Positions 2,611 to 7,609 are shown, counted from the stretch's first letter. The stretch: DNA of 7,609 bases from a virus (IMGVR_UViG_2693429748_000010); one strand, 5' to 3'. Notes: generated from the sequence alone by a model not told the origin. A program made the numbers and translations.

Positions 2611-2630
2611 CAAAAACCCGCCGAAGCGNC
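2611..2630 (-). terminator. Rho-independent terminator whose 5' stem arm is formed by the tRNA 3' end
   Basis: Minus-strand RNA GCCGC-TTCG-GCGGG followed by TTTTTGTTTTTATTTTC, assuming N at 2629 is G. The intact version (CCCGC-TTCG-GCGGG-TTTTT) is at 6138..6156. Confidence 0.45.
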
Positions 2631-2700
2631 CCTTGCTGGACTTGAACCAGCGACCTGGCGATTATGAGTCGCTCGCTCTGACCAACTGAGCTAAAGGGCC
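2627..2700 (-). tRNA. tRNA with CAU anticodon, most likely tRNA-Ile2 (lysidine) type; no encoded CCA
   Basis: Manual fold of minus-strand GGCCCTT-TA-GCTC-AGTTGGTCA-GAGC-G-AGCGA-CTCATAA-TCGCC-AGGTC-GCTGG-TTCAAGT-CCAGC-AAGGG[N]C-G: 7 bp acceptor stem (needs N2629=G), 4 bp D stem, 5 bp T stem with TTCAAGT loop, anticodon loop CT-CAT-AA. Closely resembles E. coli ileX as I recall it. One A-C mismatch at the top of the anticodon stem. Confidence 0.75.
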
Positions 2701-4368: not shown

Positions 4369-4656
4369 TCAATCCTGCTCAAGATTGTAGATGAGTTTAT
4401 TCTTCAGCAAAAGCAGAAAACCAGCCTTAAAACCAATCTCTTTCAAAACCCGTAATGATGTGACAAATTCGTCCTCACGCAAAATAAAACCGTCCGTCAG
4501 AAGTCCATTACAAAAATAAAATAACACAGCACCGCTCTTCCTTTGTTGAGATTGCAAACATCTAATGCGGCAATGGCTGACAATCGCTCCATTCTCAACG
4601 CGCACAGCATAGAGGCCATTTTCACTAAAAATTTCACGCAATTCTTCGATTTTCAT
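4369..4656 (-). CDS. Hypothetical 95 aa protein; paralog of 2220..2480
   Basis: True ATG at 4656. N-terminal ~70 aa nearly identical to the 86 aa paralog; C-terminus differs because of an indel-induced frame change. Confidence 0.5.
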   Translation of the reverse strand: MKIEELREIFSENGLYAVRVENGAIVSHCRIRCLQSQQRKSGAVLFYFCNGLLTDGFILREDEFVTSLRVLKEIGFKAGFLLLLKNKLIYNLEQD

Positions 4657-4905: not shown

Positions 4906-5061
4906 TTACTTCCTGGATTCGTAGTCTACGAAGACAGCGACCTCCGTCTGGCCGGTTCGGATTCGTACCTCACAGAGGTCTTTCCTCGTTACCAGTGCCG
5001 TCACTATGACGGTTAAACAGATGACGATCAGGGCGATTAACATCGCCTTTTGCTGCTTCAT
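4906..5061 (-). CDS. hok: Hok-family type I toxin (51 aa) with variant C-terminus
   Basis: MKQQKAMLIALIVICLTVIVTALVTRKDLCEVRIRTGQTEVAVFVDYESRK: first 44 residues identical to E. coli HokD as I recall it, last 7 differ. AAGGAGAAG Shine-Dalgarno 6 nt upstream of a true ATG. Track ORF is an in-frame upstream extension. Confidence 0.75.
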   Translation of the reverse strand: MKQQKAMLIALIVICLTVIVTALVTRKDLCEVRIRTGQTEVAVFVDYESRK

Positions 5062-5118
5062 AGCCTGCTTCTCCTTGCCTTTCGGCATGTAAGAGGCTAA
5101 CCTACATGTGCAAAGCAT

Positions 5119-5283
5119 GAAATTGGCCTCAGATTAATGTTAAGCGTCTTGCCGGACGCGTAATGTTAACTGGGGCTTTTCTCTATCTGCCTTTTGGTGT
5201 TCATGCCTGAAGCAGATAGCCTCAAGCACCCGCAGTCATTCTACTTACCTCGCCAATATGAAATCAATCAGAAAGGTGCCCCA
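5119..5283. repeat. hok leader/promoter repeat, copy B
   Basis: Near-identical to 6445..6604; partial diverged copy at 6626..6748. Confidence 0.8.
5238..5267 (-). promoter_or_regulatory. Candidate promoter of hok locus B (TTGATT-N18-TAGAAT)
   Basis: Minus-strand -35 at 5267..5262 and -10 at 5243..5238, about 170 nt upstream of hok; identical element at 6559..6588. Confidence 0.4.
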
Positions 5284-5288
5284 TAAAA

Positions 5289-5975
5289 TCACTCCTTCTC
5301 TTCTTTACCGTAGTGGAGTTGACCAATTTTGATAAGAGGGCGTCCCTGAGATTTGCGGTGTAGATTGGTATCGCGCAGAGAATACACACAGCCACAATAT
5401 TCCTGCTGATAGAATTTTTCGCGCTTGCTGATTTCAATCATACGGGACGAGCCGCCCTGCTTGCGCCAGTTATAATCCCAGTACACCATGCCCGGATAAT
5501 GCGCGACGGCTCGCCGCCCACAGTCGTTAACCTGCTGCATATTTTTCCAGCGTGAAATGCCCAGTGAACTGCTGATCACACTGAAACCATTTTCAGCGGC
5601 GTACAGCGCTGTCCGCTCAAAACGCATGTCAAAACACATGGTGCAACGGATCCCTCGTTCGGGCTCCCATTCCATTCCTTTGGCTCGTTCAAACCAGTTG
5701 TCTGTGTCGTAATCAGCATCAATAAACGGCACGCCGTGTTGTTCAGCAAAGCGAATATTCTCATCCTTACGAATTAAATACTCTTTCTGAGGATGAATGT
5801 TCGGGTTGTAGAAAAAGATGGTGTAGTCGATTCCCGAGGCCTGAAGCGCCTCCATCACCTCACCGGAACATGGAGCACAGCAAGAGTGCAGTAGTAGTTT
5901 GTTTGCCCCGTTTGGGAGCTCCAATTTGGGCCGTTTGAAATCAGCAACTGTCATAAATATGTTTATTGGGGTCAT
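5289..5975 (-). CDS. queH: QueH-like (DUF208) putative epoxyqueuosine reductase
   Basis: 228 aa with [10 protein letters not shown] near the N-terminus plus [18 protein letters not shown] and [11 protein letters not shown], which match the conserved Cys-containing motifs I associate with DUF208/QueH. No clear Shine-Dalgarno at either candidate ATG (5975 or 5954). Confidence 0.55.
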
Positions 5976-6082: not shown

Positions 6083-6137
6083 NTTTTGATTCTATTCCGG
6101 CACCATCTAAAACTTCAAACGCGTTGAAAATAAAAAC

Positions 6138-6156
6138 AAAAACCCGCCGAAGCGGG
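6138..6156 (-). terminator. Rho-independent terminator of hok locus C
   Basis: Minus-strand CCCGC-TTCG-GCGGG followed by TTTTTGTTTTTATTTTC. Confidence 0.6.
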
Positions 6157-6226
6157 TTAAGTGTGGGTGCATTGAGGATGCCTGACCCATCAGAGGTGGC
6201 GAGGGATTTCTCCCCCGCCTGGTCTC

Positions 6227-6382
6227 TTACTCCTCAGGTTCGTAAGCTGTGAAGACAGCGACCTCCGTCTGGCCGGTTCGAATTCGTACCTCGCAGAGGT
6301 CTTTCCTCGTTACCAGTGCCGTCACTATGACGGTTAAACAGATGACGATCAGGGCGATTAACATCGCCTTTTGCTGCTTCAT
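6227..6382 (-). CDS. hokD: Hok-family type I toxin, HokD-like (51 aa)
   Basis: MKQQKAMLIALIVICLTVIVTALVTRKDLCEVRIRTGQTEVAVFTAYEPEE matches E. coli HokD (RelF) as I recall it. Same Shine-Dalgarno and leader as locus B. Confidence 0.8.
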   Translation of the reverse strand: MKQQKAMLIALIVICLTVIVTALVTRKDLCEVRIRTGQTEVAVFTAYEPEE

Positions 6383-6444
6383 AGCCTGCTTCTCCTTGCC
6401 TTTCGGCACGTAAGAGGCTAACCTAGATTTGCCGTTCATAGATT

Positions 6445-6604
6445 GAGCCTCAGATTAATGTTAAGCGTCTTGCCGGACGCGTAATGTTAACTGGGGCTTT
6501 TCTCTATCTGCCTTTTGGTGTTCATGCCTGAAGCAGATAGCCTCAAGCACCCGCAGTCATTCTACTTACCTCGCCAATATGAAATCAATCAGAAAGGTGC
6601 CCCA
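6445..6604. repeat. hok leader/promoter repeat, copy C
   Basis: Near-identical to 5119..5283. Confidence 0.8.
6559..6588 (-). promoter_or_regulatory. Candidate promoter of hok locus C (TTGATT-N18-TAGAAT)
   Basis: Identical to the locus B promoter element. Confidence 0.4.
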
Positions 6605-6625
6605 NNNNNNNNNNNNNNNNNNNNN
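6605..6625. other. Assembly gap (21 N) inside the hok-leader repeat array
   Basis: Run of N flanked on both sides by copies of the same hok leader sequence. Confidence 0.95.
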
Positions 6626-6748
6626 GAAATTGGCCTCAGATTAATGTTAAGCGTCTTGCCGGACGCGTAATGTTAACTGGGGCTTTTCTCTATCTGCCTT
6701 TTGGTGTTCATGCCTGAGACAGATAGCCTCAAGCACCCGCTGCAATTC
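6626..6748. repeat. hok leader repeat, third diverged partial copy with different -35 region
   Basis: Matches the leader through the TAGAAT -10, then diverges (TTGCGG-N16-TAGAAT instead of TTGATT-N18-TAGAAT). Several point differences, so not a simple assembly duplicate. Confidence 0.6.
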
Positions 6749-6779
6749 TACTTAACTCTCCTTTTCCCGCAAACCGTTT

Positions 6780-6863
6780 TTATCCCCAGCGGCAAATCGA
6801 ATACACCACCAGCGCCACCGCCATCGCAATTCCTACCGTTGTTAATGCTTCAGGCCAGGTCAT
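6780..6863 (-). CDS. Candidate 27 aa hydrophobic peptide ([27 protein letters not shown])
   Basis: True ATG at 6863 overlapping the stop of the 114 aa gene (ATGA). One predicted membrane span with a basic C-terminal end. Too short to be in the ORF track. GGAGG lies about 10 nt upstream. Confidence 0.3.
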
Positions 6864-7204
6864 CGTAAAATATCCTCCACGCTTATCAGTCCGTTCCGCT
6901 CCAGATAACTCATCGCCTTATCCGGTAATTTGCAGTCTGGCTTCGCTTTTCTCAGTTGCCAGGTTAACTGCTTTACCAGCATGGTTAACTCATCGACCAG
7001 ACGCTGATATCCCACTGGTTTGTATTCATGCAATTTACCGGCTGGCTCTGCTGCCAGCGATACCAGTGCGATTTCCAGAACAGCAATATCCATCTTATAT
7101 GTGCGGATGATGTCATGGTCGATTGTGCCCGGTATGCACAGTCTCTGTGCTTCAATAGTCTCCTCTGCGTGAGCTATTAACTGCTCTCTGGTAAAAGTCG
7201 TCAT
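6860..7204 (-). CDS. Hypothetical 114 aa protein
   Basis: True ATG at 7204 overlapping the stop of the upstream 55 aa ORF (ATGA). Shares MTTxT(K/R)E start and an A-L-x-S-L-x-A-E-P motif with that ORF. Confidence 0.55.
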
Positions 7205-7368
7205 GCCGTAGCCCCTTCTTGATATTTTTCAAACCAGAACACAACCGGCTCTGCTTCCAGCGATGCCAGCGCAATCCGTGCCAGTTCCATTTGTTCACCA
7301 CGGGTAAGCCCGTTTTCAAGCGGGTTTTTAATGAACAATTCAATACGTTCTTTGGTAATAGTGGTCAT
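7201..7368 (-). CDS. Hypothetical 55 aa protein ([55 protein letters not shown])
   Basis: Manual translation. AAGGAG Shine-Dalgarno 6 nt upstream of ATG 7368. Not in ORF track because under 60 aa. Coupled to the 114 aa gene. Confidence 0.4.
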
Positions 7369-7378
7369 GTGTTACTCC

Positions 7379-7609
7379 TTAACCCGCAGTGCTTTCAACT
7401 GATGAGGGGAACAAAATCTTTTCATCAAACCCTGCATTCATATCATGAACAGCAACACACCAATCCATCGACGAACGATTATCAAGAGCCTCCATGATTT
7501 CATCCATGCGGCGTAGGTCATACAGGTAAATGCTTTTATCGCCAATGGTGTAAAAGCCAATTTTTTTCGGTGATGGATGAGGTGTACTGGCAATAGCGGA
7601 CACTACCAT
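7379..7609 (-). CDS. Hypothetical protein, probably partial (N-terminus may lie beyond window end)
   Basis: Open frame to the window edge, stop TAA at 7381..7379, 10 nt upstream of the 55 aa start. The ATG at 7609 may or may not be the true start. Confidence 0.4.
   Translation of the reverse strand: MVVSAIASTPHPSPKKIGFYTIGDKSIYLYDLRRMDEIMEALDNRSSMDWCVAVHDMNAGFDEKILFPSSVESTAG

Follow-up and report, generated by a model that had tools for sequence, protein, structure and literature searches.

Escherichia coli carries in its inner membrane a class of small proteins of about 27-50 amino acids (aa), which are often left out of annotation and act by binding larger membrane proteins. Phages also encode small proteins of this membrane, for example the superinfection-exclusion proteins Imm of T4 and gp15 of HK97, which are non-essential and located in accessory regions. 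The present study concerns a 27-codon gene (6780..6863, minus strand) in a viral stretch of DNA of 7,609 nucleotides (nt), IMGVR_UViG_2693429748_000010, which was analysed at its full length and is called the window here, together with the open reading frames (ORFs) chained in front of it and the hok genes next to it. In our judgement, the region is probably a mosaic run of accessory genes that ends in a genuine, independently mobile and translation-coupled gene for a 27-aa membrane peptide with an accessory, partner-binding function.

A lone 27-codon ORF is expected by chance, and its significance therefore rests on conservation elsewhere. When the peptide was compared by tblastn with 50,697 phage records, 95 were matched, including VT1-Sakai, VT2-Sakai, EDL933-Stx, BP-4795 and ArgO145, and in 92 of them the match spans 80% or more of the peptide, with an identity of 63-96%. 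In three of the matched phages the frame follows three unrelated genes (ending ...ISVEDILR*, ...IEQKVNQ* and ...PQEVK*), each time with an ATGA overlap, and the similarity stops at the stop codon of the peptide. A degenerate DNA pattern requiring only W-P-E-A...Y-S..R-W located at least 120 loci in IMG/VR; those listed, together with further loci, make up the set of 125 copies to which all copy fractions given here refer. These copies comprise 54 distinct nucleotide sequences and 34 peptide variants, and the ORF has exactly 27 codons in 122 of the 125. Variability is greatest at the third codon position (entropies of 0.37, 0.29 and 0.64 for positions 1-3), and the ratio of non-synonymous to synonymous polymorphism (pN/pS), computed on the 18 codons that the search pattern does not fix, is 0.46 in the peptide frame versus 0.63 and 1.7 in the other two frames. 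Among the intact copies, divergence is greatest in that of Av-05, a virulent phage of the Vequintavirinae: 19 of its 84 bases differ from the window, with 12 synonymous and 6 non-synonymous differences and a ratio of non-synonymous to synonymous substitution rates (dN/dS) of about 0.09; overall, dN/dS ranges from about 0.1 to 0.6. RNAalifold found no supported RNA structure in the peptide block (-8.4 kcal/mol, with an unfavourable covariation term). Judged by this pattern of change, the 27-codon ORF is very probably protein-coding. An earlier note on this DNA had stated that absence of the 27-aa frame from homologous regions would speak against its proposal; the frame proved to be conserved in homologous and non-homologous contexts alike.

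The gene is preceded by a Shine-Dalgarno (SD) sequence, GGAGGA (6873..6878, minus strand), which lies within the last codons of a 114-aa gene, 9 nt before the ATG. An SD 5-mer is found 4-11 nt upstream of the start in 123 of the copies listed, in unrelated upstream coding contexts, and in the same number (123) the start falls within an ATGA or GTGA overlap with the upstream stop, an anatomy from which we infer that translation of the peptide is coupled to that of the upstream gene. At least five unrelated gene ends occur upstream, among them that of DUF551 proteins (HWMPLPEPPQEVNQ), which are the commonest upstream neighbours elsewhere, that of a 131-aa protein of phrog_1621 (NDLKNIEQEVNR), WERGGHEEGDK, and AAMLKKKGMNQ in Av-05. 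Directly after the peptide stop, at least ten unrelated sequences were seen among the copies listed, including a hok promoter, a terminator-like hairpin with a T-run, and other genes. With both flanks varying in this manner, the conserved unit runs from the SD through the ATG to the stop, over about 100 nt. In VT2-Sakai (2034-2504), the gene for the 131-aa phrog_1621 protein is inserted between the DUF551 gene and the peptide gene, and the junction motif (C)AGGAGGTGAAnnAATG stands at both ends of the insertion, where it looks like a module-insertion linker.

The block of 111 nt that holds the SD and the ORF has matches in 1637 of 5426 complete genomes of E. coli, and in 1395 of these the coverage is at least 80% (about 26-30% of the genomes); there are up to seven places per genome, and 164 places are on plasmids of about 100 kb. 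The carriers include VT1-Sakai, Shiga toxin (Stx) phages of the VT2-Sakai/933W type, these phage-sized plasmids, and at least one virulent phage. In a scan of species representatives, the peptide gene was found only in E. coli, Shigella flexneri, an Escherichia sp. and two tiny contigs. The latter are assigned to Xanthomonas pisi (431 bases) and Acinetobacter idrijaensis (369 bases), where contamination is likely, and a match at 92.6% identity in Actinobacillus phage vB_Apl-pPE4 is likewise probably due to contamination or mislabelling. A pseudogene is present in Shigella phage POCJ13 (2001-2081), in which codon 3 has changed from TGG to TAG and extra replacements have accumulated; the annotation of that locus has two small ORFs on the opposite strand instead. 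Under the 111-nt matches RefSeq lists the upstream gene alone, the peptide being rarely annotated, and this omission would be explained by its 84 nt, fewer than gene callers usually require of a gene. NCBI/UniRef does have entries of exactly this 27-aa sequence, named 'putative prophage protein' (in E. coli 042), or else 'bacteriophage protein' or 'hypothetical protein', and extended calls of 45 and 52 aa, starting inside the DUF551 gene, are also in the databases.

As the earlier note had proposed, the product is a single hydrophobic span: one hydrophobic stretch covers residues 6-24 (mean Kyte-Doolittle value 2.16) between the flanks W3-P4-E5 and R25-W26, in agreement with the form of small single-pass membrane proteins, that is, one stretch of membrane-spanning length with polar or aromatic flanks. 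The invariant positions are W3, P4, E5, A6, Y21, S22, R25 and W26, all of them demanded by the search pattern. Among the positions that it leaves free, G11 and A15 are each conserved in 30 of 31 variants, and A17, L18, I23 and C24 in 29. The helix contains two small-xxx-small motifs, G11xxxA15 and A13xxxA17; such motifs typically mediate helix-helix packing. R25 is the sole basic residue and E5 the sole acidic one, and by the positive-inside rule the position of R25 near the C-terminus suggests that the topology is most likely N-out/C-in. A lipoprotein was considered and rejected, as no lipobox is present (Y-S-I-C against [LVI][ASTVI][GAS]C) and Cys24 is Phe in copies of the VT1-Sakai type. 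Searches of the family libraries gave nothing significant for the peptide in Pfam (no HOK_GEF, PF01848; best DUF883_C, a tail-anchor family, E 0.029, below the cutoff) or in NCBIfam (KdpF, TIGR02115, at 12.5 bits against a cutoff of 26.85), and in PHROGs only a weak match to phrog_4612 (E 0.011), still weak with the extended forms of 45 and 52 aa. None of the proteins of 27, 55, 114 and 87 aa encoded by the chain described below matched a PADLOC defence model at E <= 1, nor was there a significant NCBIfam match for any of the four.

The gene stands at the end of a chain on the minus strand. A partial ORF (7379..>7609), the 3' 76 codons of a gene whose start lies 33 nt past the window end, is followed after 10 nt (7369-7378) by a 55-aa ORF (7201..7368); the stop of the latter overlaps the start of the 114-aa ORF (6860..7204) in the ATGA at 7201-7204, and the stop of the 114-aa ORF overlaps the start of the peptide gene in the ATGA at 6860-6863. 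The tight, co-oriented chaining of four ORFs that the earlier note reported is thus borne out. In a near-identical RefSeq prophage (NZ_AP022105, 99.9% identity) the partial ORF is complete and encodes 87 aa (WP_000224233.1, hypothetical protein; phrog_1714, E 9.5e-51), a protein for which Pfam, PDB, PADLOC and NCBIfam searches returned no match. The gene order in that prophage is Cro-like, YdaT, replication genes, DUF977, 70 aa, DUF4014, 87 aa, 55 aa and 114 aa, then the 27-aa gene, which is not annotated, and hokD, DUF968, RusA and Q. The Pfam matches of the window (RusA, DUF968, DUF1133/Q-like, YbcO, DUF1367, QueH and HOK_GEF) agree with a lambdoid placement, and, as read from gene order and content, the chain lies in the rightward early operon of a lambdoid prophage of E. 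coli, at the position of lambda ren/nin. The full arrangement of four ORFs recurs in 315 of the 5426 complete E. coli genomes, which is consistent with one successful mosaic.

The 55-aa and 114-aa proteins have in common the start MTTxT[K/R]E and the motif IAL(A/V)SL(E/A)AEP, and their likeness, which the earlier note had picked out from these two features, goes back to genuine homology (BLASTP, E 1e-5, 33% identity across 54 columns). The further suggestion in that note, that the short protein is a truncated copy of the long one, has to be given up. Residues 1-44 of the 55-aa protein are 86% identical (BLASTP) to residues 1-44 of P22 EaA, and its last 14 residues are those with which the product of an HNH-endonuclease gene ends in phage ArgO145, where that gene stands before the 114-aa gene; judged by these two matches, the ORF is a chimera of an EaA-type N-terminus and the 3' end of an HNH-endonuclease gene, and thus a stand-alone N-terminal module. 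The shared motif marks a recombination-prone module boundary. A natural recombinant, P0074 (101 aa), consists of residues 1-37 of the 55-aa protein and 50-114 of the 114-aa protein, and is by this composition the result of recombination between the two adjacent N-modules at the ALASL-AEP motif. Both proteins belong by their MTTxTKE... start of about 50 aa to the EaA/YfdT N-module family (phrog_3323, phrog_660 and phrog_60). The 55-aa protein matches phrog_3323 (E 1.3e-19), phrog_60 and, weakly, phrog_2118 (the HNH C-terminus, E 0.002), and the 114-aa protein matches phrog_660 (E 8e-43), of which only the ends correspond to its architecture; phrog_3323, phrog_60 and phrog_660 are families of unknown function. 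Neither protein has a Pfam match, and hence neither has a DUF551 domain (PF04448).

The layout of the 114-aa protein is an N-module at residues 1-54, a linker, and a C-module ELTMLVKQL..KLPDKAMxYLxRNGLISxEDILR, and in the family alignment several N-module subtypes are carried by the same linker and C-module, the latter with 17 invariant positions. An AlphaFold2 model of this protein is all helical, with a mean predicted local distance difference test score (pLDDT) of 78 and a predicted template modelling score of 0.43; the hairpin of the N-module (helices 6-26 and 30-51) is confident at a pLDDT of about 90, and the remainder is less certain. A Foldseek search with the model found no significant fold match in PDB (best E 0.58), and sequence searches of PDB were empty or insignificant. 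The N-module also resembles YfdT of E. coli K-12 (41% over 54 columns, E 8e-6), a protein said to lack a defined motif (PMC4776307). As to function, a single and indirect hint exists for proteins with this module, namely that multicopy yfdQR together with yfdS or yfdT inhibits the initiation of replication (PMC4776307). In the CPS-53 prophage (11874-12179), YfdT has an EaA-type N-module, MTTFTNKELI...EIALVSLEVEP, and the start of yfdT overlaps the stop of the DUF551 gene yfdS in TAATGA. A mosaic architecture of portable domains has been described for the Ea22 and DUF551 proteins of the exo-xis region (PMC10834534).

The hok neighbourhood that the earlier note placed beside the operon is real as well, with a HOK_GEF ORF at 6227..6439 (Pfam, E 3e-23) and Rfam sok/hok-leader matches at 6558-6738, 6377-6552 and 5056-5231. 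None of these matches overlaps 6780-6878, and no antisense RNA family of Rfam lies over the peptide ORF. A putative hok promoter (TTGCGG, 16 nt, TAGAAT; 6745..6772, minus strand), recognized by reading the sequence and situated outside the gene chain, begins 7 nt past the peptide stop, and the Rfam match begins at 6738; on these coordinates the peptide ORF directly abuts the predicted hok promoter and does not reach into the hok/sok RNA element. In about half of the copies listed, hok comes directly after the peptide gene with the same junction, and about half are without hok. Conversely, the second hok of the window has no peptide gene, the hokD region of Qin in K-12 has none in its annotation (only the annotation was consulted, the sequence not being scanned), and a motif scan found none in the yfdS/yfdT region of CPS-53 in K-12. 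Between 6440 and 6745 (minus strand) there are two consecutive copies of the hok promoter/leader, of 67 bits (6558-6738) and 112 bits (6377-6552), separated by 20 masked bases (an N-run at 6606-6625); only the second is followed by a hok ORF, and the first resembles a partly duplicated copy or the remains of a hok.

We thus regard as probable a reading in which the region would be the tail of a mosaic accessory run of the 'ea/nin-type', flanked by the replication genes on one side and the hok/nin region on the other. The 55-aa and 114-aa proteins would belong to a large, heavily recombined phage family that joins an N-terminal hairpin of about 50 residues to interchangeable C-modules, and the 55-aa ORF would be a leftover of recombination by which the reading chain stays unbroken. 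The 27-codon gene would move independently, bringing its own SD and overlapping in ATGA with whichever gene precedes it. Its product is predicted to be a single-pass peptide of the inner membrane, with a W-P-E-A head, a helix rich in small residues and a Y-S-x-x-R-W tail, and would be made only when the early genes of the phage are on; its most likely action, we infer, would be to use its small-xxx-small face for binding a membrane protein, either of the host or of the phage. The peptide would then serve an accessory, non-essential early function and would form no toxin-antitoxin pair, either with its neighbours or with hok. As for the four genes, they are independent mosaic modules and not a dedicated toxin or exclusion system. 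More tentatively, the peptide might be a dedicated phage effector whose target during early lytic development, onto which it docks, is either one particular E. coli protein of the inner membrane or the Hok toxin encoded next to it; this narrower proposal is less probable than the contrary.

Several points weigh against the reading of an accessory, partner-binding peptide gene. Translation and membrane insertion are predictions, and the topology and the partner-binding mechanism are conjectural. The peptide sequence was not found in the searchable literature, and it is absent from the supplements of two small-ORF surveys, one on small genes in Sakai and one on the microproteome of Enterobacteriaceae. 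Among close relatives the constraint is no more than moderate (pN/pS of about 0.4-0.6), conserved copies are favoured by the search pattern as well as by tblastn, and, with most copies residing in frequently recombining phages of Escherichia and Shigella, part of the conservation could reflect recent common descent. Moreover, about half of the copies directly precede hok, and this may not be accidental. The adjacency to hok would also suit a stand-alone membrane-damaging toxin or host killer, type I- or Kil-like, which depolarises or permeabilises the membrane or effects abortive infection. A small, phage-encoded peptide with a single hydrophobic helix could equally be membrane-damaging, and a toxic product would be tolerable in lysogens if expressed only from repressed early operons. 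Yet neither an antisense RNA nor a dedicated promoter accompanies the gene, its SD is exposed and its translation coupled within an operon, HOK_GEF and PADLOC matches are lacking, and up to seven copies coexist in one genome; furthermore, the invariant interfacial WPEA and YSxxRW together with the small-xxx-small helix suggest specific packing and not generic disruption. We consider such a toxin rather unlikely.

The proposal of the earlier note, that the four ORFs are one toxin/regulator or phage-exclusion module in which the 55-aa and/or the 114-aa protein neutralises or regulates the 27-aa effector, fits the tight coupling of the ORFs and the occurrence of the whole arrangement in 315 genomes. 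It does not fit the finding of the peptide gene behind at least five unrelated upstream genes, the 114-aa C-module being only one of them, nor the absence of hok from about half of the copies or of any PADLOC match; the 55-aa ORF is a chimeric remnant that is deleted in the recombinant P0074, which keeps the rest, and the 55-aa and 87-aa genes are both missing from ArgO145, which does have the 114-aa and 27-aa genes. On this evidence the module is improbable. Much the same has to be said, a shade more firmly, of the notion that the 27-codon frame is untranslated and the 84-nt block is kept as DNA or RNA, be it a recombination linker, a regulatory site of hok or a hitch-hiker. The site does lie at mosaic boundaries, the RefSeq Prokaryotic Genome Annotation Pipeline (PGAP) does not call the gene, and the searched literature and survey supplements hold no expression data. 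However, frame, length, start, stop and SD are kept in 122-123 of the 125 copies listed despite the 54 nucleotide variants, third-position changes dominate with dN/dS down to 0.09, RNAalifold gives no supported structure, and the block is conserved also where hok is missing, so that an untranslated block is very improbable. Least credible of all, and to be entertained only as an outside chance, is a detachable C-terminal membrane anchor that is frameshifted at the ATGA onto an upstream protein of the DUF551 or EaA type. The peptide frame is indeed open for 11-25 codons upstream in some contexts (the annotated forms of 45 and 52 aa), there is the weak compositional likeness to DUF883_C below the cutoff, and in P0054 (143 aa) a one-base frameshift takes the 114-aa protein, after ...SYLERNG, into the frame of the peptide (...CRWG); this membrane-anchored fusion could be a natural mutation or a sequencing error. 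By inspection, however, no slippery heptamer is present at any type of junction, the conserved SD and ATG point to independent initiation, and the fusions are rare, forming a single cluster of five E. coli contigs. In-frame fusions of DUF551 proteins to the peptide were considered and dismissed, since the DUF551 proteins of 121 and 185 aa end in ...PQEVNQ without the peptide; the clustering of DUF551 proteins with the peptide at 90% arises from partial out-of-frame calls.

If the peptide is made, its gene would rank among the commonest unannotated phage genes in E. coli, given its presence in 1395-1637 of the 5426 complete genomes. It would be a clean case of a gene missed through its size, conserved yet rarely in RefSeq and without a significant match in Pfam, PHROGs or NCBIfam, and of a complete expression cassette, from SD to stop in about 100 nt, that is shuffled as a unit. 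Were a phenotype defined, the biology of the medically relevant Stx phages would gain a small membrane effector. Should the docking proposal hold, the peptide would be the founding member of a widespread and overlooked family of phage micro-effectors, and the cassette from SD and ATG to the stop would be one that moves self-contained between unrelated operons. Additionally, the EaA/YfdT N-module gives a family assignment to YfdT of K-12 and to many 'hypothetical' prophage proteins. Nevertheless, the finding reveals no new kind of system: small phage membrane proteins are already known.

Some further features of the window deserve mention. A gene for QueH (epoxyqueuosine reductase, PF02677, E 2e-65) lies at 5289-5975 (minus strand), inside the prophage between two hok/sok loci, and just downstream of it is the second complete hok (4906-5118, minus strand) with its sok/leader match at 5056-5231 (minus strand). 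Downstream of the hok at 6227..6439, a sub-threshold match to IsrK, a small RNA of Salmonella prophages, was found at 6137-6218 (minus strand; 25.7 bits against a gathering threshold of 50, E 0.021), ending at a terminator-like hairpin (6141-6158). The nin/Q region contains a tRNA-Met (CAT) at 2626-2700 (minus strand; ARAGORN; Rfam, 63.9 bits). Two paralogous small ORFs, at 2220-2483 and 4369-4656 (minus strand), encode 87 and 95 aa, both start with MKIEELREIFSE and belong to no Pfam family; together with the intervening DUF1367/YbcO/DUF1133 block, they suggest a duplicated or composite nin region.

Set against the systems already described, the peptide is like Hok/Gef and other type I toxins in being small, hydrophobic, carried on mobile elements and placed beside hok in about half of its copies. 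It differs in having no HOK_GEF domain, no overlapping Sok-like RNA and no promoter or structured leader of its own, as an operon-internal coupled gene whose product is half the size of Hok and without its periplasmic tail. The 55-aa and 114-aa proteins share with P22 EaA and YfdT the same N-module, and with the lambdoid exo-xis and DUF551 proteins the same mosaic, domain-shuffled architecture, but they have neither the DUF551 domain nor the EaA body, and their genes are located in the rightward nin-side operon and not in the exo-xis region. With T4 Imm and HK97 gp15 no homology of the peptide was detected, PHROGs having given only the weak, unannotated phrog_4612; those proteins are longer, are made by the prophage or as early gene products, and have shown exclusion phenotypes. 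The early operon downstream of the Cro-like gene is repressed in a lambdoid lysogen, and the position of the peptide gene in it therefore argues against prophage-mediated exclusion. The nearest likeness of form is to KdpF, AcrZ and MgtS, members of a small inner-membrane protein class that is among the subjects of a review (PMC12648545): the peptide too has one hydrophobic helix with interfacial aromatic and charged residues, whereas it has no sequence relationship to them, is borne by phages and is translationally coupled to variable upstream genes.

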